Part shown: piece by piece, positions 7,589-29,814 of the stretch
Position numbering within the stretch: the first letter of the stretch is position 1
How the letters are laid out: each line of letters starts with the position of its first letter
Assembly: GCA_029780855.1 (NCBI GenBank)
Contig: JAKOXV010000024.1
Coordinates: 43,275-107,274, forward strand
Origin: a bacterium
GTDB lineage: Bacteria > Patescibacteriota > Saccharimonadia > Saccharimonadales > JAUPVS01
Direction: 5' to 3'
DNA length: 64,000 nt
The notes under the pieces: model-generated
The model's database searches: none
Told to the model about the DNA's origin: nothing
Seen by the model: only the letters and a program-made list of their open reading frames with translations
Position numbers and translations under genes: made by a program

Positions 7589-7996
7589 ATGAACCCAGAC
7601 AACCCCATACCGCAGACCCCCCAAACTCCGCGAAACCGCCGAGTGCTTTGCATAGAGGACGAACATTTCATTGGCGAACTATATGCCCGGGCGCTCACTA
7701 AAGCTGGGTATGACATAAACGTAATTGTCGACGGGGTCAAGGGGCTAGAAGAAGCCAAGACCAACCAGTATGACATTATTCTGCTCGATCTCATGATCCC
7801 TAATATGACAGGCATAGACCTACTTAAGAAGCTTCGCACTGATGTACCTAACCTAAAGGCTAAGATCATTATTACAACCAATCTGGAGCAAAAAGAAGAA
7901 ACCCGTAAGGGCATTGAAAGCCAGGCTGATGGCTACATTATCAAGGCCGAAATTACTCCTCACCAGCTCGTACAGATTCTTGACGGCATCGCCTAG
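7589..7996 (+). CDS. single-domain response regulator (CheY-like receiver)
   Basis: Receiver motifs CIEDE, DIILLDLMIP, IIITT and KAEI. GGAG sits 7 nt upstream. The start is 2 nt after the kinase stop. Confidence 0.9.
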   Translation: MNPDNPIPQTPQTPRNRRVLCIEDEHFIGELYARALTKAGYDINVIVDGVKGLEEAKTNQYDIILLDLMIPNMTGIDLLKKLRTDVPNLKAKIIITTNLEQKEETRKGIESQADGYIIKAEITPHQLVQILDGIA

Positions 7997-13358: not shown

Positions 13359-13433
13359 TGGTGACCTCACGGGGAATCGAACCCCGATTGCCAGGATGAG
13401 AACCTGGTGTCCTAACCGTTAGACGATGAGGCC
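13359..13433 (-). tRNA. tRNA-Glu (anticodon CUC), CCA encoded
   Basis: The reverse complement GGCCTCATCGTCTAACGGTTAGGACACCAGGTTCTCATCCTGGCAATCGGGGTTCGATTCCCCGTGAGGTCACCA folds as a cloverleaf. It has a 7-bp acceptor stem, anticodon loop UUCUCAU, T-loop GGTTCGATTCC, and is 75 nt long. Confidence 0.93.
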
Positions 13434-15231: not shown

Positions 15232-16566
15232 ATGTCAAAAGTAATGCTCGTCGAAGACGATAATAACCTGCGGGAGATATATGAAGCCCGTCTGGCCGCA
15301 GAAGGATACGAAATTGTATCCGCCCATGATGGCGAAGAAGCGCTGGCTCTTGCGGTCAAGGAACGGCCTGACCTTATCATATCCGATATCATGATGCCCA
15401 AGGTTAGTGGCTTTGACATGCTCGACATTCTCCGTACCACCCCTGAGACTAAAGACACCAAAGTGATTATGATGACTGCGCTCAGCCAGGCAGAAGACAG
15501 AGCACGAGCCGATAAACTAGGAGCCGATAAATACCTCGTAAAATCACAGGTAACCCTCGAGGATGTGGTGAAGACTGCTCGAGAGGTACTTGAAGGTAGC
15601 GCAGCCCCCACAGCCGGCTCCGCACCGGCCACAGCAAATCCTACTACCGCCGCAGCGGCAGTCACGGACTCTCCTGAACCTGCAGCACCTGCAACACCAG
15701 CGCCAGCACCAGAGCCAACTCCCATGCCTGTTACGTCGCCGCCAGCCACCCCCAACCCGGCTCCGACATCAAGCCCCGCGCCAGCGCCTAGTCCTGCTCC
15801 AGCTCCTACACCGCAGCCAACGGCAATTCCCGTTTCGGAACCACCTGCAGAACCAAGCAATACACCTGTAGCTTCAGCAGCCCCCAGCTCCGGTGAACCG
15901 GCCCAAGCTAGTTACTCTGTAGCATCGTACGCGCCGCCCGCTGAACCCGCCACCCCAGCGCCTAGTCCTGCTCCAACTACTGAACCTGAACCGGCCGCGG
16001 CAGCACCAGTAGTAGTTCCGGAACCAGCACCAGAAGCCGTTGCATCCCCTGAACCTACACCAGCTCCACAAGCCTCAGATGCAGAGCAAAAAATCCAAGA
16101 TTTTATCGCCAATAACGCTACTCCCGCACCGCCCGCTGAACCCGCCACCCCAGCGCCTAGTCCTGCTCCAACTACTGAACCAGTTCCACAACCAGAGCAG
16201 ATCACACCTGAACCACAACCCAGCACACCACCAACACCTATCCCGGTAACTGATCCGGATCCTACGCCGCAACCTCCAAGCAGCGAACCAGCTCCAGAAG
16301 CAGAGACTGAGGCAGACACCGAGAATCAAACTGAGCCGGACAAGCACAAAAAAGTAATAAAACCGCTCAATGATCTCAATGCTCCGCGCGTTGATTTAAG
16401 TGAACTACTCGCCAAAGAAGAGGCCAAGCAATCAGAAGCATCTCCTGAAACACCGAGTACGCCTCCCACAACCCTACCAGGCACGCTTCCAAATCCAGAG
16501 GATGCACCAGAACCAACTCCTCCTCAGCCCGGGCAAAGCATCGATCCCAACAGTATTTCACTTTAG
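15232..16566 (+). CDS. response-regulator receiver fused to a ~320-aa Pro/Ala/Thr/Glu-rich tail
   Basis: Residues 1-120 form a canonical receiver (LVEDD, DLIISDIMMP, MMTA, KYLVKS). The remainder is a low-complexity PAPxP-type sequence with no output domain. Confidence 0.85.
   Translation: MSKVMLVEDDNNLREIYEARLAAEGYEIVSAHDGEEALALAVKERPDLIISDIMMPKVSGFDMLDILRTTPETKDTKVIMMTALSQAEDRARADKLGADKYLVKSQVTLEDVVKTAREVLEGSAAPTAGSAPATANPTTAAAAVTDSPEPAAPATPAPAPEPTPMPVTSPPATPNPAPTSSPAPAPSPAPAPTPQPTAIPVSEPPAEPSNTPVASAAPSSGEPAQASYSVASYAPPAEPATPAPSPAPTTEPEPAAAAPVVVPEPAPEAVASPEPTPAPQASDAEQKIQDFIANNATPAPPAEPATPAPSPAPTTEPVPQPEQITPEPQPSTPPTPIPVTDPDPTPQPPSSEPAPEAETEADTENQTEPDKHKKVIKPLNDLNAPRVDLSELLAKEEAKQSEASPETPSTPPTTLPGTLPNPEDAPEPTPPQPGQSIDPNSISL
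15934..16181 (+). repeat. two perfect 53-nt direct repeats inside the receiver tail (15934-15986 and 16129-16181)
   Basis: ccgcccgctgaacccgccaccccagcgcctagtcctgctccaactactgaacc occurs twice, 195 nt (65 codons) apart. A partial third copy (ccagcgcctagtcctgctcca) lies near 15781. Confidence 0.9.
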
Positions 16567-22175: not shown

Positions 22176-22516
22176 CAAAAAAAGGACCTCCAGAGGGGGT
22201 GGGCACCGCTGGAGGTCCTATTATTGGGCTCGATAAATCGAGCCCACCACACCCTTCAACCCACCCCAGTGAAGCGTCGATGTCCAAAACTCTTAAAGAC
22301 TCGCGCATCCACCCATGAAGGGCAGAGTACTGGATACTCACTTTGATATCGGGAAGTTAAAGGGGTTAGTATGCTTTAGAGCGCTTACAGTCATAGAATG
22401 ACCAAAACGCTAGAATAAGTGGAGGGTAACAACTTATACAGCACGCTCTAAAACACTCTAACAAATTGTTAGAATTTGGGGGTATAAGGTACGTAAACGT
22501 AATATTACGCTTACGG
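22176..22516 (-). ncRNA. candidate ~340-nt structured RNA of unknown class
   Basis: - strand promoter TTGACA (22550-22545), 16-nt spacer, TAAAAT (22528-22523). Terminator AGGACCTCCAG/CTGGAGGTCCT (22183-22193 / 22209-22219) plus U7. Internal helices include UUUAGAGCG/CGCUCUAAA. No credible ORF. Confidence 0.45.
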
Positions 22517-22643
22517 ATTGCTATTTTAGCAATATTATGACTTTTGTCAATACTTTTTTGTGTTTTTAGCAACTATATTACACAAAACCATAAGCTTATT
22601 CTGGTATACTGACAGGGATAGCTGATAGGCAACTGAATACCAC

Positions 22644-23501
22644 ATGAAAGTTCGCACCCTAACCGCCAAATCTGGCACCATGCCGGCTCGCTTGTTACAG
22701 GTGAGCCCTCCTCCCAGCAAACTGTTTGTCCTGGGCGACACACTAGAATCGTTACTCAAAAAGCCGTGTTTGGCTGTTGTTGGTAGCAGAGCTGTCAGCC
22801 CTTATGGTCGACTGGTAACAACCGAGCTTGTGGAAGCAGCGGCCCGAGCGGGCGTTACCATCATAAGCGGTCTAGCACTTGGGGTGGACGGCCTAGCACA
22901 CTATGCCGCCTTGAACGCTCACGGGGGCACTATAGCAGTACTGCCGTCGCATGTGACAGAAGTGTATCCCGCCTCACACCGGCAGTTGGCTCAGCAGATA
23001 CTCCAAAATGGTGGGGTATTGGTGTCGGAATATCCTCCCGGGACGAATGCCCGCCGAGAGAATTTCATCGAGCGGAACAGATTAGTATCAGGTTTAGCAG
23101 ATGCCGTACTTATTACAGAAGCAGCCGAAAAGAGCGGCACGCTCCATACCGCCCGCTTTGCATTAGAGCAGGGAAGAGATGTCTTGGTAGTACCCGGGAA
23201 TATCAACAGCCCAAATAGCAAGGGGACGAATACCCTCCTAAAGGCAGGTGCCGAACCCATAACGTGTCCAGAGGACATACTCGGGCACTTTAACATCCAC
23301 GAAACAACAGAACAGATGGAGCTCATTGGTAATAATGCTGAGGAGCAGGTTATTTTGGATCTACTACGGCAAGGTGTAACCGATGCTAGTGAACTCCATG
23401 CCCTCAGCAAGCTCGCTACCCATACGTTTAATCAGACCCTTACCATGCTAGAAATCTCTGGCAGGATTAAACCATCTGCTGGTAACTGGTATCTGTTATA
23501 G
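22644..23501 (+). CDS. dprA: DNA-processing protein DprA
   Basis: LAVVGSRAVSPYG...IISGLALGVDG.AH...GGTIAVL matches the DprA Rossmann-like domain. A C-terminal winged-helix-like tail is present. Confidence 0.9.
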   Translation: MKVRTLTAKSGTMPARLLQVSPPPSKLFVLGDTLESLLKKPCLAVVGSRAVSPYGRLVTTELVEAAARAGVTIISGLALGVDGLAHYAALNAHGGTIAVLPSHVTEVYPASHRQLAQQILQNGGVLVSEYPPGTNARRENFIERNRLVSGLADAVLITEAAEKSGTLHTARFALEQGRDVLVVPGNINSPNSKGTNTLLKAGAEPITCPEDILGHFNIHETTEQMELIGNNAEEQVILDLLRQGVTDASELHALSKLATHTFNQTLTMLEISGRIKPSAGNWYLL

Positions 23502-23503
23502 TC

Positions 23504-23532
23504 TTGTATAATTATCGATAATATGCTATAAT
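23504..23532 (+). promoter_or_regulatory. candidate promoter of GC-rich cassette A
   Basis: TTGTAT (23504-23509), 17-nt spacer, TATAAT (23527-23532). Followed by the palindrome AGCAAATTGCT. Confidence 0.5.
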
Positions 23533-23580
23533 TAGCTAGTTTTAGCAAATTGCTGGAACGCACCTGAACAAGGAGTAGAT

Positions 23581-24006
23581 ATGTACAAGCGGTATGTGAT
23601 CGCCGCCCTGGTGTTCTTTGCGCTCATCATGGTTGGGGCCGGCTTCGTCGCCAACAACGACCCGTTTGACACGGGAAGCCCGTGGATGAACTGGCTGACC
23701 CTGAGCGTTGGTGGTTTCATCGGCGTGTTCATCGCCCTGATGACCTTCATCGGCTCTTGGGAGTCGAAGGGAATCTCCGATGAAGGCGAACGTTGGGTGG
23801 TCTTCTGTGTCAGCGTGGTTGGAACGGCGTTCTTCGGAGCCATGATCGTGGGGATCATCCTGGATGGCGCCTCAGATACGTCAGCCCATCTCGGATGGAC
23901 GACCTACGGTGTCTCCCTGATCCTCATGAACGTGGCCTACCTGGTCATGTACCTGATGCCGGAGCCCAAGTCCGCCGATGCCCTCAGCCTGCACCGAGCC
24001 GCGTAG
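23581..24006 (+). CDS. small 4-TM membrane protein (GC-rich cassette A)
   Basis: 141 aa. AAGGAG lies 5 nt before the ATG. Strong GC3 bias (a 60-nt line scored 37/60 GC vs 24/60 in topA). Four hydrophobic helices. No family recognised. Confidence 0.75.
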   Translation: MYKRYVIAALVFFALIMVGAGFVANNDPFDTGSPWMNWLTLSVGGFIGVFIALMTFIGSWESKGISDEGERWVVFCVSVVGTAFFGAMIVGIILDGASDTSAHLGWTTYGVSLILMNVAYLVMYLMPEPKSADALSLHRAA

Positions 24007-24018
24007 GACCATGTCGCC

Positions 24019-24069
24019 GGAGCCGGGGAAATCTTTCTAACGTCGATGACGTTATGAAACCCCGGCTCC
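24019..24069 (+). other. compound GC-rich hairpin after cassette A ORF
   Basis: Outer stem GGAGCCGGGG/CCCCGGCTCC (10 bp) encloses an inner hairpin AACGTC-gat-GACGTT. No U-run follows. Confidence 0.7.
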
Positions 24070-24092
24070 CACCTTTCTCCTTGTTCAATTTT

Positions 24093-24143
24093 CGCTTCCA
24101 TAACTGTGTAGTTATGCTGATGAGTCCAAAAGGACGAAAAGCG
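24093..24143 (+). ncRNA. hammerhead ribozyme, type III topology (copy 1)
   Basis: CGCUU-C17 | CAUAACU-GUGU-AGUUAUG | CUGAUGA | GUCC-AAAA-GGAC | GAA | A-AGCG. All invariant core positions are present. Stem III is 5 bp, stem I 7 bp, stem II 4 bp. Predicted cleavage falls between 24098 and 24099. Confidence 0.9.
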
Positions 24144-24151
24144 TAAGAATA

Positions 24152-24180
24152 TTGACTTATTTACAATTTTAGTATAAAAT
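24152..24180 (+). promoter_or_regulatory. near-consensus sigma70-type promoter inside the hammerhead-bounded unit
   Basis: TTGACT (24152-24157), 17-nt spacer, TAAAAT (24175-24180). It begins 9 nt after ribozyme copy 1. Confidence 0.6.
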
Positions 24181-24444
24181 ACTGTAGTCACAACCAGTGA
24201 CACATCAAGAAGCAGAACCTTTACACCACATACCCAACCAGAAAGGAGCCTTTGGCTCTCTAGTAGTACCAAGGTAAAACCGCACAAATTATACTCTCGG
24301 ATAATTTGCACGGACCACTTGCTTTCCATAGGTGCCGTAGCGGCGCACATGGAAGAAGCAGATGTGAAGAGGAGTGGATACGAATCTTCACCTGCTACAT
24401 GCTACACCTGGCAATACCCCATTGGCCGAGAGGAGAAGATCCCG

Positions 24445-24642
24445 ATGGGTAAGCGGTACACTCTACGTTGCGGATCCCCGCGACCCCAGTTCCGTAACTG
24501 GGAGATCGTGTGGGAGATGCACGGCACCGTCCACTTCTGCACCGTGCAGCTCTCCGTCCGCATTACCGAACCGGAGCTGGTGCGCGCTGCTGCAGACGTG
24601 CCTGACGAGGCCGAGGCCTACATCGTGCCCTTGCTGGCATAG
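24445..24642 (+). CDS. small hypothetical protein, 65 aa (GC-rich cassette B)
   Basis: GAGAGGAGAAG lies upstream of ATG 24445. The frame gives a plausible sequence (MGKRYTLRCGSPRPQFRNWEIVWEMHGTVHFCTVQLSVRITEPELVRAAADVPDEAEAYIVPLLA). The alternative 141-aa frame is R/S/P/C-rich junk. Confidence 0.55.
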   Translation: MGKRYTLRCGSPRPQFRNWEIVWEMHGTVHFCTVQLSVRITEPELVRAAADVPDEAEAYIVPLLA

Positions 24643-24805
24643 ATCAAGCCTACGTGCGAGAGAGAAACGAGTACGGAAACTCGTAAAAAATCCTGTAATA
24701 CTTCGGGGAAGTTCCGGAGCGCCTCCGTTTCAGTGTGTTCGTGCACGATTCGGCCAAAGCGGTCAACTATACCTTTCTCTCTATTCTTCTGCTTCTTGAT
24801 ACACA

Positions 24806-24856
24806 CGCTTCCATAACTGTGTAGTTATGCTGATGAGTCCAAAAGGACGAAAAGCG
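24806..24856 (+). ncRNA. hammerhead ribozyme, type III topology (copy 2, identical to copy 1)
   Basis: Same 51 nt as 24093-24143. Predicted cleavage falls between 24811 and 24812. Confidence 0.9.
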
Positions 24857-24860
24857 TATA

Positions 24861-25046
24861 ATGAAAACTGAAATGGAAACAAAACATCTCATATATATAA
24901 TGGTGGCAATATTTTCTACTCTTGGTGGATGGCTCGGTGGCATCATGGACCACGGTAATTTCTTGGGGATGTGGAGTATATTGCTGGCTGGTATAGGCGG
25001 TTTTGTAGGCGTATACGTAGGCTACAAGATCGGTAACAATACCTAA
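24861..25046 (+). CDS. small Gly-rich membrane protein (GlsB/YeaQ/YmgE-like?)
   Basis: 61 aa, two TM helices with GGWLGG and GIGGFVG motifs. Native low GC. ATG 24873 is an alternative start. Confidence 0.6.
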   Translation: MKTEMETKHLIYIMVAIFSTLGGWLGGIMDHGNFLGMWSILLAGIGGFVGVYVGYKIGNNT

Positions 25047-25129
25047 ACTGCAGTTTGCTTTTATACACAACTTGCCGTAAGCTCTTAGTTTGTTACTAAA
25101 ATAAGTACGGTATACTACCCATTACGCAT

Positions 25130-27421
25130 ATGGCAAAAAATCTCGTTATTGTTGAAAGCCCCGCTAAAGCCAAGACTATAGAAAAGTACTTAGGCAAAGA
25201 CTACGTTGTTAAAAGCAGCTTTGGTCATATTCGTGATTTACCCAAAAAGGGAATTAGTATTGCTATCGATAAGGGGTTTGAACCGACCTATGAAGTTAGC
25301 AGTGATAAGAAAAAAGTTGTAGCCGAACTTAAGAAGCTTGCTAAAACAGCCGAAAACGTCTGGCTAGCAAGTGACGAAGACCGCGAAGGAGAGGCAATTG
25401 CCTGGCATTTATGCAAGGCGCTCGGATTAGATGATAAAACGACTAAGCGCATTGTCTTCCATGAGATAACCAAACCAGCCATTTTGAGCGCCATAGAGCA
25501 GCCTAGAACAGTAGATAAAGACCTCGTTGATGCCCAACAGGCTCGCCGTGTTCTAGACCGTTTAGTCGGCTATGAGCTTTCACCGGTACTTTGGAAAAAA
25601 GTACGGACTGGTTTGAGCGCTGGCCGCGTACAATCCGTCGCAGTACGATTGATTGTGGAACGTGAACGAGAAATAAAGGATTTTAACCCTGAAGTTAGTT
25701 ACAAGGTAACGGGGCTATTTGACGCCAAAGGCACCGAACTCCCCGCTGAACTACCGAATAAGCTCGCCGATGAAGTAGCCGCGACGGCATTCTTAGAAGA
25801 CTGCAAACATGCAACATTTAGCGTCTCAGCAATTGAAGCAAAGCCAGGCACCCGCAACCCTAGTGCTCCATTCACTACCAGCAGTCTCCAGCAAGAAGCC
25901 GCCCGCAAGCTTGGCTATTCCGTACGCCAAACTATGACCCTGGCACAGCGGCTGTATGAAAATGGACACATTACCTATATGCGTACCGACAGTACCAACC
26001 TAGCCGGTCAGGCGATTGCCGCCGCCGAAGCCTATATCCAGAAAAACTTCGGTAAGGAGTACCATCAGGTTCGCCAGTATAAAACCAAAGCTGCCGGTGC
26101 ACAGGAAGCGCACGAAGCGATTCGCCCAACCGACTTTGCAGTAACGAGCGCAGGATCAGATGCGCAGCAGAAAAAGCTCTATGAACTCATCTGGAAGCGA
26201 ACGCTTGCGAGCCAGATGGCTCCCGCTAAAATCGAACGGACAGAGGTGAGCATTTCACTATCAAACCGGACCGAAACATTGCTCGCAAAAGGGGAAGTTT
26301 TAACGTTCGACGGCTTCATTAAGGTGTACGGAGGCGGCAAAGACGACACTATCCTACCGCCAATGGGACAAGGCCAGGATCTGCCGCTTGTAAGCATGAA
26401 GGCTACCCAATCATTCAGTAAACCAGCAGCCCGGTATTCTGAGGCAAGCTTGGTGAAGAAGCTAGAAGACTTAGGTATCGGCCGCCCAAGTACCTACGCG
26501 CCGACCATCAGCACCATTCAAACCCGCGGGTACGTCGAGAAAAGTGATCTGGAGGGAACCGAGCGTACCGTTCGAGAACTTACACTTATGAAGGGAAGCA
26601 TCACCACCTCTGATAGAACAGAGGTGACCGGTGCCGACAAAAACAAACTGCTACCAACCCACATCGCTGAGATGACAACCGATTTCTTGGTTAAGCATTT
26701 TGCGTCGATTGTCGATTACGATTTCACCGCAAAGGCCGAAAAAGGGTTCGACGATATCGCCGATGGCAAAGAGAAGTGGAACACCATGATCGCCGATTTT
26801 TATAAAGATTTTCATCCCCTTATTGATAAAGCAGCAGATGTTTCCCGCGAGGAGACTTCACAGGCAAGGGAGCTCGGAAAAGACCCTAAAAGCGGTAAGC
26901 CGGTGATAGCCCGTTATGGCCGATACGGCGCCATGCTACAGATTGGTGAAGCAGAAGACGAGGAAAAGCCTCGATTTGCGCCATTGCCAGATGGAGCGAC
27001 CCTAGAAACGGTCACCTATGACCAAGCCATGGAAATGTTCAAACTACCCCGCACGGTAGGAAAAACCGAAGACGGAGAAGACATTAAGGCAAACGTGGGA
27101 CGGTTTGGTCCCTACATTCAGGTCGGTAAATTGTTTGTATCAATAAAAGGTCAGGATCCACTCACTATTACCGAAGCAGAGGCGCGCCAAGCTTACGGCG
27201 AAAAGCTCAAAAAAGACGCCGATAAGTACATAGCTGAATTTGATAGTGGCATAAAGATTGTAAATGGCCCCTATGGACCGTACATCACAAACGGCAAAAA
27301 GAATGCCCGTATCCCTAAAGAAACCGATCCAAAAAAACTTTCAGAGGCCGAGTGCAAGGAAATACTCGACAAAGCTCCGGATAAAAAAAGACGCTTTACT
27401 CGTCGCAAAAAAACCAGCTAG
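25130..27421 (+). CDS. topA: DNA topoisomerase I
   Basis: 763 aa. TOPRIM start LVIVESPAKAKTIEKYLG, active-site region ITYMRTDS, and a lysine-rich C-terminal tail. Confidence 0.96.
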   Translation: MAKNLVIVESPAKAKTIEKYLGKDYVVKSSFGHIRDLPKKGISIAIDKGFEPTYEVSSDKKKVVAELKKLAKTAENVWLASDEDREGEAIAWHLCKALGLDDKTTKRIVFHEITKPAILSAIEQPRTVDKDLVDAQQARRVLDRLVGYELSPVLWKKVRTGLSAGRVQSVAVRLIVEREREIKDFNPEVSYKVTGLFDAKGTELPAELPNKLADEVAATAFLEDCKHATFSVSAIEAKPGTRNPSAPFTTSSLQQEAARKLGYSVRQTMTLAQRLYENGHITYMRTDSTNLAGQAIAAAEAYIQKNFGKEYHQVRQYKTKAAGAQEAHEAIRPTDFAVTSAGSDAQQKKLYELIWKRTLASQMAPAKIERTEVSISLSNRTETLLAKGEVLTFDGFIKVYGGGKDDTILPPMGQGQDLPLVSMKATQSFSKPAARYSEASLVKKLEDLGIGRPSTYAPTISTIQTRGYVEKSDLEGTERTVRELTLMKGSITTSDRTEVTGADKNKLLPTHIAEMTTDFLVKHFASIVDYDFTAKAEKGFDDIADGKEKWNTMIADFYKDFHPLIDKAADVSREETSQARELGKDPKSGKPVIARYGRYGAMLQIGEAEDEEKPRFAPLPDGATLETVTYDQAMEMFKLPRTVGKTEDGEDIKANVGRFGPYIQVGKLFVSIKGQDPLTITEAEARQAYGEKLKKDADKYIAEFDSGIKIVNGPYGPYITNGKKNARIPKETDPKKLSEAECKEILDKAPDKKRRFTRRKKTS

Positions 27422-27525
27422 CTCTCAAGCTTGTAAAATCATTCTACTCATGGCATAGTACAGATCTAGAGGAAAACCCTCTAGTGTACGCCATTACGTA
27501 CACGTTCGTACCTTAAGGGGGCAAA

Positions 27526-27936
27526 ATGGCGGAGCTGCAACAGAGCACCGAGGCACGGTTGAGCGAACTGATGTACCATCCGGATTCCCGGATACATAAT
27601 TGGGAAGACGAGGTCATGATGCTCGTGTACCGCCTGCTTGGTGAACATCAGCAGGCTACCTGGCGCGAGGCCGAACGGCACTACATGAACTGGTGGGCCA
27701 GCGCTCGGCATATCGACAAGAAGGATCTACAGCGCAGCATCGATTCTCTTCCGGGACTGTCGGTGCACATCAAAGCCGCTCTCCGTCGTGCACACATCAC
27801 CACCATCGGGATGCTTCTGTATCTGACAGATGAAGAGCTGCTGCAGGTCAAGAACATCGGTGAAGCACGCCTCAAGATCATCAATGAGGCTCTCAAGAAG
27901 ACCCGGCTGGCTCGCTACAAGCGGTCCGCACGATGA
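27526..27936 (+). CDS. small protein with RNA-polymerase alpha-CTD-like helix-hairpin-helix domain (GC-rich cassette C)
   Basis: 136 aa with GC3-rich codons. LSVHIKAALRRAHITTIGMLLYLTDEELLQVKNIGEARLKIINEALKK resembles the alpha-CTD consensus (LSVRAxNCLKxAxIxTIGDLxxxTEEELLxIxNFGxKSLxEI). Confidence 0.65.
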   Translation: MAELQQSTEARLSELMYHPDSRIHNWEDEVMMLVYRLLGEHQQATWREAERHYMNWWASARHIDKKDLQRSIDSLPGLSVHIKAALRRAHITTIGMLLYLTDEELLQVKNIGEARLKIINEALKKTRLARYKRSAR

Positions 27937-27949
27937 ATCACCTACCCAT

Positions 27950-27999
27950 GGCCGGAGGGGCAAAACTACTCGAGGCGACACTGTCGCACCCCTCCGGCC
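27950..27999 (+). other. compound GC-rich hairpin after cassette C ORF
   Basis: Outer stem GGCCGGAGGGG/CCCCTCCGGCC (11 bp) encloses an inner hairpin GCGAC-act-GTCGC. This is the same two-level design as 24019-24069 but with unrelated sequence. Confidence 0.7.
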
Positions 28000-28067
28000 C
28001 ACCCCTTAAGGTACACGTTTCAACCTCTCTATTGACTTTTATTATAGATTTCTGGATAATATGTTGC

Positions 28068-28550
28068 ACGTCAAGCAATTGAAGTACCTACTTATTCGTA
28101 ATGATCTAGCAGAGGCACGATGAGGCTATCAACGCCACGTTGGTGTAAACCAGCACAATCGTCGCGTCTCGCATTCCGTGGGAAAAGGAGTGATCCCCAT
28201 TCGGGTAGATCGCCGCTTTCAGCTCAGGCTGTCAGTCCAAGTAGCGAAGCCCTTCAAAAGGCTGCCGCCACCACGGAATGTTCTCCTGCTCGAGTAGGTT
28301 AATGGAGTTGCCCGCTCCAAGCCGACTCGCAGGAACGCGTAGACGACCCATGCTGTCGTCCGCGCTTAGGATGTCCTGGCTCGCGCCAAGTACGCTACCC
28401 GCCAGCCGAAAGGCCGAGCCAGGGCATCCACCACACACTTCAAATTACGACGCGCGAGTTCAGTGCAAGAGAAACTGGTAGTAGCACCAAGGCTTACCCC
28501 TATGGTAGCTCCCAACACTCTTCCACATCTACGAACTCGCTTTTTTCTTT
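28068..28550 (+). ncRNA. candidate ~480-nt GC-rich structured RNA of unknown class
   Basis: Promoter TTGACT (28032-28037) plus TGgATAATA (28053-28061). Helices are 28172-28181/28271-28280 (10 bp), 28369-28383/28415-28429 (15 bp with one U-G that would be A-C on the other strand) and 28342-28347/28355-28360. Closing stem 28454-28461/28533-28540 is followed by T6. No credible ORF on either strand. Confidence 0.5.
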
Positions 28551-28678
28551 ATAGAGGGTATCCTTTGGTTTATCCCCAACTTGCTATCTGTTAAGAGATA
28601 TTTTGTTGTAATGTTGTTATGCTTTATGTGAGCACATAAGTCTATTTCGTGATAAAATAAGTTCATAAAACACTAAGT

Positions 28679-28707
28679 TTGACTTTTAAAAATTAAAGTT
28701 ATATAAT
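28679..28707 (+). promoter_or_regulatory. consensus sigma70-type promoter of the sigma-like gene
   Basis: TTGACT (28679-28684), 17-nt spacer, TATAAT (28702-28707). The 5' UTR contains hairpin AGGGGTA-gggcgt-TACCCCT. Confidence 0.65.
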
Positions 28708-28782
28708 TATACTATTACAGCAGGGAGGGGTAGGGCGTTACCCCTGTTATTACAGAGTATAAGAAAAGGAATAATCATAAAG

Positions 28783-29814
28783 ATGGCAGAGCAGTCCACC
28801 AAAAAAATCGATATTGAAGCCGTTGTTCAAGACGTCCTTGGCGTTATCGAACGGGAACGAGAGCGAGAAATTGTTTCGCGCCGTTTTGGATTGTTTGACC
28901 GCAAAGAAACGTTAGAGCAAATAGGGGAGCTGCTTGGTATAACCCGTGAACGTGTTCGTCAGCTCGAAAAGGCCGTAGTCACTCGTCTCAAGTCTGCTTC
29001 AAAAGATCTGCCACACATGACTGAAATCGAAAATGCCTTTGTAGCCGAACTTGAAGGCATGGGCAATGCCGCTCGGATTAGTGATCTCAGCGCTAAACTT
29101 ACTGAAAAAAACGAACGTACCGACCAAGCCCGCGTTTCATTCTTAGCCGAACTATCCCCTAAACTGGCGGTAATTGATGAGAACGATCATTTCTACCACG
29201 CAGTTGGAATAGCAAAACTACACAACGAAAAACAGATGAAGGATCGCGTTGCTAAAATAATTGACGCCATAAAGACTATTGGAGAACCTACTGGCATTGA
29301 TGCAGTTGCCACGGCCGTTAAAGATAGCGATAAAAGTCATGTAGAAGCACTTGCTAGCACCAGCAAGGCACTCGCAAGTCTGCACGGTCGCTGGGGACTA
29401 GTGAAGTGGCCTATGGTCAACCCTAAAAATATTCGGGACAAAATTTATGTTATTTTGTTTGAAAAGGGCAAACCGATGCACTTCAACGAAATCGCTGGAG
29501 AAATCAAGAAATCAAGCTTTAAGCGCAAGGATGTGACCACCCAGGCAATCCATAACGAACTCATCAAAGATAGCCGTTTCGTACTCATCGGCCGCGGTAT
29601 TTATGCGTTGAAAGAGTGGGGATACAGCAAGGGAACCGTAGCCGATATCATCACCGATGTACTTAAGAAGGCCGGTGAACCCCTGCACCGAGACGAAATC
29701 GTCAAACGCGTCCTCAAAAGTCGCCAGGTAAAAGAAACCACCATTCTGCTTAATCTACAGGGTAAGAGCCAGTTCAAGCGCGTTGCCAAAGCTACCTACA
29801 CGCTCGCAAACTAA
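28783..29814 (+). CDS. sigma-70 region-4-like HTH protein with C-terminal HARE-HTH-like domain
   Basis: N-terminal REREIVSRRFGL...TLEQIGELLGITRERVRQLEKAV is a region-4 signature. The C-terminal PMHFNEIAGEI...FVLIGRGIYALKEWGY resembles a delta-subunit/HARE-type winged helix. Confidence 0.75.
   Translation: MAEQSTKKIDIEAVVQDVLGVIEREREREIVSRRFGLFDRKETLEQIGELLGITRERVRQLEKAVVTRLKSASKDLPHMTEIENAFVAELEGMGNAARISDLSAKLTEKNERTDQARVSFLAELSPKLAVIDENDHFYHAVGIAKLHNEKQMKDRVAKIIDAIKTIGEPTGIDAVATAVKDSDKSHVEALASTSKALASLHGRWGLVKWPMVNPKNIRDKIYVILFEKGKPMHFNEIAGEIKKSSFKRKDVTTQAIHNELIKDSRFVLIGRGIYALKEWGYSKGTVADIITDVLKKAGEPLHRDEIVKRVLKSRQVKETTILLNLQGKSQFKRVAKATYTLAN

Follow-up and report, generated by a model that had tools for sequence, protein, structure and literature searches.

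Hammerhead ribozymes flank single variable genes or small gene blocks in prophages and other mobile DNA (e.g., the anti-restriction gene ardA; Agrobacterium tumefaciens), and processing into gene-length mRNAs has been proposed as their role (Perreault et al., 2011; PMC3088659). Here we describe three GC-rich gene cassettes, A, B, and C, whose ends are complementary to each other, in a 64,000-nt stretch of a Saccharimonadales genome (assembly GCA_029780855.1, contig JAKOXV010000024.1, positions 43,275-107,274), called below the window; all coordinates are positions in this window, and all three cassettes lie on the plus strand. The cassettes are likely to represent a Saccharibacteria-wide family of inserted transcription units, in which a closing RNA helix connects the 5' leader with the 3' end, and either a ribozyme or a terminator makes this end. 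The pairing of the two arms is conserved and covarying, lies inside the transcript and is indifferent to whether a ribozyme or a terminator follows, and the units are insertions.

The cassettes resemble the genes described by Perreault et al. (2011). First, hammerheads (there of type III or other types) delimit variable accessory genes: cassette B is flanked by two of them, and the cassettes have variable cargo and are absent from syntenic relatives. Second, anti-restriction ardA there has a counterpart here in two anti-Thoeris Tad4 cargo proteins. The role proposed there, processing into gene-length mRNAs, is likewise shared. However, the cassettes described here possess their own promoter, a covarying 5'-3' closing helix and a conserved leader, and are located amid chromosomal housekeeping genes; end pairing was not reported in that study (PMC3088659). 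Hammerhead-delimited accessory genes as such are known, while the covarying closing helix, the promoter-to-ribozyme frame and its spread in Saccharibacteria are new. Literature searches on hammerheads in Saccharibacteria, Patescibacteria or the Candidate Phyla Radiation (CPR), and on the RNA motif RAGATH-10, yielded nothing relevant.

Phage morons, described by Hendrix and colleagues, are autonomous promoter-gene-terminator units inserted between genes, often with deviant base composition. Like morons, the cassettes are self-contained units between conserved genes, with non-host GC content and unknown or accessory cargo; unlike them, they carry a ribozyme instead of, or besides, a terminator, have paired RNA ends, and reside in a bacterial chromosome with no evident prophage. 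In the hok/sok system, fbi/tac pairing joins the extreme 3' terminus of the mRNA to its 5' translation-initiation region, yielding a compact, stable and poorly translated RNA. A 3' element pairing with the translation-initiation region is found here only in A, the homologs of A, and C, whereas the Sok antisense RNA, the mok frame and the small toxin are missing, and the processing site is downstream of the 3' element. Pairing between the 5' and 3' untranslated regions of Staphylococcus aureus icaR and Bacillus subtilis hbs affects translation or stability, but these are single terminator-ended chromosomal genes, whereas in the cassettes the pairing belongs to a modular frame that recurs around many unrelated cargo genes and is coupled to a ribozyme. 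Finally, in synthetic insulators (RiboJ, ribozyme-processed transcripts) a hammerhead beside a hairpin sets the transcript end regardless of context. The catalytic strand of the cassette ribozymes, CUGAUGAGUCC-loop-GGACGAAA, is almost the classic sTRSV-type core; in contrast to these insulators, however, the cassette ribozymes are natural, occupy the 3' end, and are combined with 5'-3' pairing.

Organization of the Cassettes

The proposed order of a unit is as follows: a near-consensus sigma-70 promoter, a 5' hairpin, the 5' arm, a leader with the Shine-Dalgarno sequence (SD), and a GC-rich accessory open reading frame (ORF), followed usually by a stable hairpin, then by the 3' arm, 0-5 nt, and a type III hammerhead, or, in some relatives, an intrinsic terminator. 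The features of A, B, and C are listed below. L-numbers here and further on denote comparison loci from other genomes and metagenomes, the transcription start sites (TSS) are those expected from promoter matches, MFE stands for minimum free energy, and GC3 is the GC content at third codon positions.

Cassette A
23504-23532, plus strand: promoter TTGTAT-17-TATAAT, a 9/12 match, beginning 2 nt past the dprA stop codon
23504, plus strand: left edge of the insertion, coinciding with the promoter of A, from comparison with L111-L113
23539-23559, plus strand: predicted 5'-terminal hairpin of the A RNA (MFE and centroid folds; promoter-inferred TSS)
23565-23575, plus strand: 5' arm TGAACAAGGAG, which includes the SD AAGGAG; 5 nt to the ATG at 23581; pairing probability 0.98
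23581-24006, plus strand: ORF for a 141-aa predicted membrane protein, GC3 0.81, with 16 remote homologs
24019-24069, plus strand: two-level GC hairpin separating the ORF from the 3' arm (MFE and centroid folds)
24077-24087, plus strand: 3' arm CTCCTTGTTCA, an 11-nt perfect inverted repeat with the 5' arm
24093-24143, plus strand: hammerhead 1, type III; predicted cut between 24098 and 24099, C17 being at 24098

Cassette B
24152-24180, plus strand: promoter match TTGACT-17-TAAAAT
24187-24201, plus strand: predicted 5'-terminal hairpin GTCAC-aacca-GTGAC (RNA fold)
24204-24217, plus strand: 5' arm ATCAAGAAGCAGAA, beginning 17 nt after the TSS expected from the promoter
24349-24642, plus strand: likely ORF, GC3 0.70, encoding 97 aa (ATG at 24349) or 107 aa (TTG at 24319)
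24787-24800, plus strand: 3' arm TTCTGCTTCTTGAT, a 14-nt perfect inverted repeat with the 5' arm
24806-24856, plus strand: hammerhead 2, type III, identical to hammerhead 1; predicted cut between 24811 and 24812

Cassette C
27466-27501, plus strand: two leader hairpins ahead of the 5' arm (RNA fold)
27508-27520, plus strand: 5' arm GTACCTTAAGGGG, which includes the SD and ends 5 nt before the ATG at 27526
27526-27936, plus strand: ORF of 136 aa with an RNA polymerase alpha C-terminal domain (Pfam PF03118, E 4.3e-10)
27950-27999, plus strand: GC hairpin before the 3' arm (MFE and centroid folds)
28002-28014, plus strand: 3' arm CCCCTTAAGGTAC, a 13-nt perfect inverted repeat with the 5' arm

The geometry given in a preliminary description of this DNA was reproduced in full: the positions and lengths of the arms (11, 14, and 13 nt in A, B, and C), the self-palindromic 8-nt core of the C arm (CCTTAAGG), the 5 nt that separate the 5' arms of A and C from their ATG codons, the start of the B arm about 17 nt after the predicted TSS, the two GC hairpins behind the A and C ORFs, and the 5 nt between 3' arm and hammerhead stem III in A and B, which would leave an 11-nt tail after the predicted cut. 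The ORF of B has neither a family match nor a clear SD, and its start is uncertain.

Pairing of the Transcript Ends

In a blind count over the window, perfect inverted repeats of at least 11 nt spaced by 200-1500 nt are not above chance (13 against 13.9 expected); for repeats of at least 13 nt, 4 were seen against 0.85 expected. The 11-nt repeat of A alone is therefore not significant, and the case rests on position and comparison. Conditioned on position, with a 90-nt leader searched against 1350 nt downstream, the chance of finding such arms is by our own estimate about 0.03 in the case of A, but 0.0005 in that of B and 0.002 in that of C. The window has two other perfect inverted repeats of 13 nt with cassette-like spacing, at 12723-12735/13666-13678 and 52751-52763/53628-53640; the former spans a tRNA gene (13362-13433, minus strand).

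Related loci were collected from genome contigs and metagenome contigs with a query composed of the hammerhead catalytic core and AAGCG, which was found in 20 genome contigs, 19 of them from Saccharibacteria metagenome-assembled genomes (MAGs), and in 52 metagenome contigs. The sole genome match outside Saccharibacteria, L003 (JBLMYZ010000028.1), is an 8.7-kb contig of an Acidobacteriota MAG and could represent a binning contaminant or a transfer. At 62 distinct sites, the 24 nt preceding stem III were compared, as an ungapped duplex, with the upstream 1.8 kb. A 3' arm located 0-5 nt before stem III, with its complement 290-1215 nt upstream, was identified at 39 of these sites; the duplex score was at least 10 at 32 sites, compared with one or two in reversed and direct controls.

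Many cassettes have a common arm consensus, TGACAAGCAGACA / TGTCTGCTTGTCA. Diverged forms of it are seen in A (TGA-A-CAAG-G-AG) and in B (ATCAAG-AAG-CAGAA), and the earlier view that the arm sequences of the three cassettes are unrelated is not right for these two; the arms of C do differ from the consensus. Compensated variants of the consensus occur in other cassettes (...AAGTAGAC, ...CATGTAGACA, GATAAGCAGA, ...CAGCT), and further cassettes have quite different arm pairs (TTATCAATCCATCC, GTGCAATCCGT, AAGGAACGGA, GGGAGAAGGC, and CGGAACAGT). In a MAFFT alignment of the 39 cassettes, 87.6% of cells pair, and changes on both sides are seen in 13 of the 14 pairs, with 60 compensated cells. None of 500 partner shuffles matched this covariation, and slid registers paired in at most 46%.

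Homologs of the A protein provided a second comparison. A full HMMER scan yielded 16 remote homologs, at least one of them from Saccharimonadales, and three were placed on contigs (L114, L115, and L116; 25-27% identity to the A protein). These three loci share one layout: a conserved GCACC, an SD-covering arm 2-8 nt ahead of the start codon, the ORF, a GC hairpin, and the complementary arm. The 5' arm reads TGAACAAGGAG in window A, TGAATAAGGAGAGA in L115, GAACAGGGAGACA in L116, and GAACAAGGG in L114; the differences are compensated in the 3' arm (C:G to U:A and A:U to G:C), and the pairing probability is 0.98-1.0. In L115, a hammerhead with a compensated stem III (CACU/AGUG) is found 5 nt past the arm. 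L114 and L116 have intrinsic terminators at the 3' end and no ribozyme; as they nevertheless keep the arms, the arms are independent of the ribozyme. No homologs of the C protein were found by k-mer search, by tblastn against 110 fetched loci, or in phage genomes.

The arms are also linked to promoters. A promoter matching at least 9/12 positions, with a spacer of 16-18 nt (17 in nearly all cases), is present upstream of 33 of 36 cassettes, whereas control windows reached at most 8/12. The distance from the end of its -10 element to the 5' arm is 23-54 nt, and the sequence that separates promoter and arm folds into a hairpin, expected at the 5' end of the RNA. In a promoter-anchored scan, blind to hammerheads, 37 of 128 promoters had arm pairs, compared with 14 for the null, and cassettes with a terminator after the 3' arm were recovered in L004 and L013. 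With arms found at promoters together with either a ribozyme or a terminator, it follows that they bracket the transcript whichever device makes its 3' end. The TTGACA within the consensus 5' arm was considered as a -35 box and dropped, as no -10 element occurs at the right spacing.

In the RNAs of A, B, and C, the arms form the closing helix of both MFE and centroid folds, with z-scores of -5.5, -5.9, and -4.9, against -2.2, +0.3, and -2.95 for control segments of similar length; over all folds of the cassette RNAs, the z-scores range from -4.9 to -6.1. When the hammerhead is included (A and B), the closing helix is predicted together with the 5' hairpin and a canonical hammerhead of three stems. 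On the plus strand, none of the three cassettes has a predicted intrinsic terminator at its 3' end. A functional RNA fold had been suggested in the preliminary description, with compensatory changes in homologous cassettes as the check, and this suggestion is supported by the covariation of the 39 cassettes and of L114-L116 and by the end-paired folds of the three window RNAs.

Leaders and Translation

A multi-stem leader of about 150 nt, CACAAGRTGAG...CTCAYCTTGTGTCTC...CCAAGC...GCTTGG...GAGGAGA, is conserved before many unrelated cargo ORFs. In long-leader cassettes, the second leader hairpin is matched by RAGATH-10 (Rfam RF03147), with 45.5 bits in L080 (1147-1224, minus strand; gathering threshold 41.2), 32.4 bits in L060 (1028-1105, minus strand) and 31.7 bits in L087 (11499-11573, minus strand); the covariance model gave no match in positions 22500-29500 of the window at E up to 5. 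RAGATH-10 is an orphan motif found near hammerhead- and twister-associated genes, and it covers the leader element only, not the arms or the logic of the cassette. A portion of the architecture had thus been noticed earlier, no function being assigned to it (PMC11061315); the functions of most RAGATH motifs remain unknown (PMC11061315).

Two observations hint at alternative pairings. In L018, L019, L077, L091, and L094, TCTGTTTGTCA is present in a leader hairpin some 20-35 nt ahead of the 5' arm TGACAAGCAGA and is complementary to this arm if G.U pairs are allowed; the arm could pair locally first and later switch to the 3' arm. In cassette B, the direct repeat AAGAAGCAGA occurs in the 5' arm (24207-24216) and again just past the ATG at 24349 (24353-24362), and the 3' arm is able to pair with either copy, the alternative pairing being 19 nt long and 79% complementary; this could be a switch or a coincidence.

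The SD is contained in the arm in A, L114-L116, C, L065, and L088, while in most cassettes the arm is located 20-150 nt upstream of the SD. In the former, short-leader cassettes, the helix would bury the SD and throttle translation once the 3' arm has been made, and translation would occur mostly before the 3' arm is transcribed or after the helix has opened. Fold-back inhibition as in hok mRNA, proposed in the preliminary description, goes further: the main purpose of the pairing would be the masking of the SD by the 3' arm, with an mRNA that is stable but silent until processing or an activator releases it. We regard this as possible but rather doubtful. The SD does lie wholly in the helix in A and L114-L116 (pairing probability about 1.0) as well as in C, L065, and L088, and A encodes a small membrane protein; to this extent, the proposal stands. 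However, most SDs are outside the arm, the ribozyme cuts 3' of the arm and does not release it, and the cargo is diverse and measures 60-330 aa (97-141 aa in the window), not the 30-50 aa of hok-like toxins. Moreover, no antisense RNA gene or mok-like overlapping frame was found, the only antisense promoter-like site being weak (9/12, 24193-24166). SD masking is rather an extra of some families only, with a hok-like geometry but not a hok-like activation, because the ribozyme cut leaves the 3' arm in place.

Hammerhead Ribozymes

The two hammerheads of the window are part of a 53-nt repeat (24093-24145 and 24806-24858), identical at 53 of 53 positions, loops included. The stems are CGCTT/AAGCG (III), CATAACT/AGTTATG (I), and GTCC/GGAC (II), and the CTGATGAG...CGAAA core is exact in both copies. 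The stem III strand CGCTT begins 5 nt past the 3' arm of A, and likewise of B, and the predicted cleavage after C24098 or C24811 would yield the 11-nt tail past the arm. Among 59 distinct copies of the family, the catalytic core varies at position 5 only (Y), and the consensus fold has stems I, II, and III, of which I and II are closed by loops and III is open, with six stem I pairs changing on both sides and U.G wobbles in stem III; the same hammerhead is seen in folds of full-length RNAs. The cleavage site follows the N-U-H rule: U16.1 is present in 59/59 copies, and position 17 is C, A or U, never G. Scores are below the gathering threshold of Rfam RF00008 (48.5 bits), at 20.9 bits (E 0.92) for the window copies and 24-46 bits for relatives; the short loops, AAAA and GUGU, are unlike those of the model. 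At gathering thresholds, a tRNA is the sole Rfam match in the window, and at E up to 5 only weak hammerhead matches were obtained in 22500-29500.

At 58 of the 62 sites a helix, either long-range or local, ends within 6 nt of stem III: long-range arms were found at 39 sites, a local hairpin at 19, and neither or an undetermined arrangement at four (one with too little upstream sequence). Of 34 hammerheads with this catalytic core on phage contigs, 29 are preceded by a local hairpin ending within 3 nt of stem III, and long-range arms are absent. In Saccharibacteria, a helix that involves the 5' leader replaces such a 3' hairpin or supplements it. One reading is that the helix serves the ribozyme only, shielding the folding of the hammerhead from upstream sequence or stacking on stem III to speed up cleavage. 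Its adjacency to stem III at these Saccharibacteria and phage sites, the narrow spacing of 0-5 nt, and the folding of pre-cleavage RNAs into arms plus a canonical hammerhead are all consistent with such a function, yet we consider it unlikely, as the arms are kept without a hammerhead in L114, L116, L004, L013, and window C. Furthermore, a stable local hairpin also precedes the 3' arm in 29 of the 39 long-range cassettes and could suffice alone; hence the long-range helix must add something else, namely, tying in the 5' end.

Proposed Role of the Closing Helix

The arms would form a closing helix of 9-15 bp in which the 5' leader is joined to the very 3' end of the RNA. By cutting about 11 nt past this helix, the hammerhead would make the 3' end without halting RNA polymerase, and read-through would allow the downstream small membrane-protein gene and topA to be transcribed, so that the cassette would not be polar. 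The closed RNA, with a hairpin at its 5' end and a 3' end carrying a 2',3'-cyclic phosphate beside the helix, could resist both 5' and 3' exonucleases and be insulated from its genomic context.

Several points weigh against this interpretation. First, the stabilization and insulation roles are inferred by analogy. Second, a local hairpin takes the place of long-range arms at 19 of the 62 sites, and long-range pairing is thus not obligatory. Third, the arm mismatches (10 G.U, six A.C, and two others) leave RNA pairing of the sense strand unproven by wobble. Fourth, the 39 cassettes used for covariation were picked by complementarity, and their counts lean to pairing, which the shuffles and the homolog test offset only in part. 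In addition, the TSS positions derive from promoter matches, the folding z-scores were compared with only three gene segments, and C possesses neither an intact ribozyme nor a terminator, so that its 3' end is undefined.

Insertion, Cargo, and Genome Context

The gene order around the cassettes (histidine kinase, response regulator, rluB, der, pth, dprA, topA, sigma factor) is common to the Saccharimonadales relatives identified by DprA. In three relatives with DprA 61-65% identical, dprA is separated from the small gene or topA by 22-82 nt, compared with 1359 nt in the window, and the gap between topA and the sigma factor gene is 184-240 nt, compared with 1361 nt. These short gaps indicate that A+B, C, and unit D, which follows C, were all inserted. 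The A-B insertion extends from 23504 (promoter) to about 24849 (hammerhead body), with the arms about 60 nt inside each edge. The window cassettes begin 2 nt past the dprA stop and just past the topA stop, and tRNA genes are found about 100-200 nt upstream of the cassette promoter in L015, L021, L100, and L109; judging from these positions, insertion seems to favor the 3' edge of a gene.

One junction can be compared with an empty site. The 13-mer AAAAGCGTATAAT is present at 24850-24862 in the window and at 7861-7873 in the cassette-free L111, in both cases upstream of the small membrane-protein gene: the empty site reads TAA-CC-AAAAGCGTATAAT-ACAAATA-ATG (METKH...), and the window junction reads TAG-TC-[cassettes]-AAAAGCGTATAAT-GAAAACTGAA-ATG (METKH..., 24873). 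The first nine bases of the 13-mer, AAAAGCGTA (24850-24858), comprise the 3' strand of stem III and TA, where the 53-nt repeat ends. On the basis of this one junction, the 13-mer may be an integration core or a microhomology. The small membrane-protein gene is situated directly behind hammerhead 2; the ORF list places its start at 24861 (61 aa, to 25046), while comparison with L111 and L112 gives the real start as ATG 24873 (56-57 aa, METKH...).

The cargo ORFs are diverse, encode proteins of 60-330 aa and have GC3 of 0.5-0.94 in genomes with a GC content of 0.38-0.57. Pfam and PHROGs searches with 35 cargo proteins left almost all of them as orphans; Pfam matches were two for Tad4 (anti-Thoeris), two for the RNA polymerase alpha C-terminal domain, which forms stand-alone proteins in window C and L065, and one for DUF2807. 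The Tad4 proteins are encoded in L015 (minus strand) and L066 (Pfam E 5e-23), and are 43-49% identical to hypothetical proteins of large Bacillus phages. Cassettes also occur in arrays, namely, A-B in the window and five in L006. No integrase or transposase was found among the genes within about 7 kb, all of which are housekeeping genes, glycosyltransferases included.

The identity of the two 53-nt repeats beside differing arms suggests copying or recombination at the ribozyme DNA. Hammerheads within single genomes share stem I in L006/L018/L019, L074, L070, and L094. Based on these two features and on the 13-mer at the L111 empty site, one could go further and regard the family as a Saccharibacteria-specific platform for acquiring and expressing accessory genes, with the hammerhead DNA doubling as a recombination junction; this is a speculative extension and improbable at present. 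If it were true, cassettes would enter by crossover or microhomology at the hammerhead-like core, the ribozyme would permit residence in operons without polarity, and the GC-rich cargo (Tad4, alpha C-terminal domain proteins) could serve the dealings of the epibiont with phages or with a high-GC host.

The arms might instead act in DNA, as terminal inverted repeats or recombination sites of a mobile cassette such as a miniature inverted-repeat transposable element (MITE) or an integron attC, a reading already raised in the preliminary description. The units are indeed inserted, occur in arrays and often lie beside tRNA genes, the arm mismatches show no clear preference for RNA wobbles, and the core of the C arm is palindromic. 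We nevertheless regard this as very unlikely. The insertion reaches about 60 nt beyond the arms, with the promoter at its left end and the hammerhead at its right, whereas the repeats of a transposon or MITE delimit the element; the arms differ within one genome, those of A, B, and C being three different sequences, and still pair, which fits selection on pairing and not on a protein-binding sequence; and the arm positions track the TSS and the 3'-end signal. In contrast to integron cassettes, each unit has its own promoter, its repeats flank the ORF at a distance of 290-1215 nt and do not form a compact attC, and IntI and attI, like integrases and transposases in general, are absent from the housekeeping genes checked within about 7 kb. 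Least probable of all is the rod or circle also suggested earlier; here ribozyme-cut ends, kept together by the arms, would be ligated in the manner of viroid-like or retrozyme RNAs. B does lie between two identical hammerheads 713 nt apart, and a read-through transcript could be cut on both sides. However, most cassettes have one hammerhead, and a promoter of their own separates the 5' arm from any ribozyme upstream, hence a triphosphate 5' end; the arms do not bring two cleavage sites together; and Perreault et al. (2011; PMC3088659) sought circular RNA from tandem bacterial hammerheads and found none.

Cassette C and Unit D

The 3' side of cassette C and the adjoining unit contain the following features.

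28016-28024, plus strand: probable 9-nt hammerhead remnant CGTTTC-AAC, one nt past the C 3' arm
28032-28560, plus strand: unit D, the fourth inserted unit, with promoter TTGACT-17-GATAAT at 28032-28060

In the putative remnant, CGTTTC corresponds to a stem III strand variant (present in 8 of the 59 hammerheads) plus C17, and AAC to the start of stem I. The C hammerhead may have been truncated by the next insertion, as the D promoter follows. Unit D probably belongs to the same family of inserted units. Its RNA is GC-rich, about 480 nt long, and very stably folded (z -6.96), its ends pair imperfectly (CGTCAAGCAATTGAAGT with ACTTCAAATTACGACG), and a terminator-like long hairpin with a T-run is located near 28545. 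No intact ORF was found in D on either strand, Rfam searches at E up to 5 matched neither region D nor a second ribozyme near C, and ARAGORN detected neither tRNA nor tmRNA in 27900-28800. RNase P, tmRNA or a minus-strand gene were considered for D and dropped, as there was no model match and no intact frame; D may be a decayed or non-coding member of the family.

Two other GC-rich regions were noted in the window. Positions 1-2000 have a GC content of 0.60-0.67 compared with about 0.47, with long minus-strand ORFs (826-1944, 372 aa; 59-1513) and no hammerhead found; this island is probably another horizontally acquired block. The response-regulator gene (15232-16566) has a very long low-complexity tail rich in Pro, Ala, and Thr, which accounts for the GC peak at 15600-16000.

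Biological Significance

To our knowledge, there is no agreement on the function of bacterial hammerheads, although hundreds have been on record since 2011. The cassettes suggest a role that can be tested, namely, the creation of a defined mRNA 3' end beside a protective helix without terminating transcription; an inserted gene would thereby keep the integrity of its own RNA and not silence the host genes behind it. The family also gives the orphan Rfam motif RAGATH-10 a functional context, and indicates that pairing between the 5' and 3' ends of a bacterial mRNA can be conserved, modular, and reused with unrelated genes. In practical terms, the frame provides the newly tractable Saccharibacteria with a natural, ready-made expression cassette. 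Within the reduced genomes of these bacteria, the frame marks a fast-evolving pool of accessory genes that is otherwise hard to spot.

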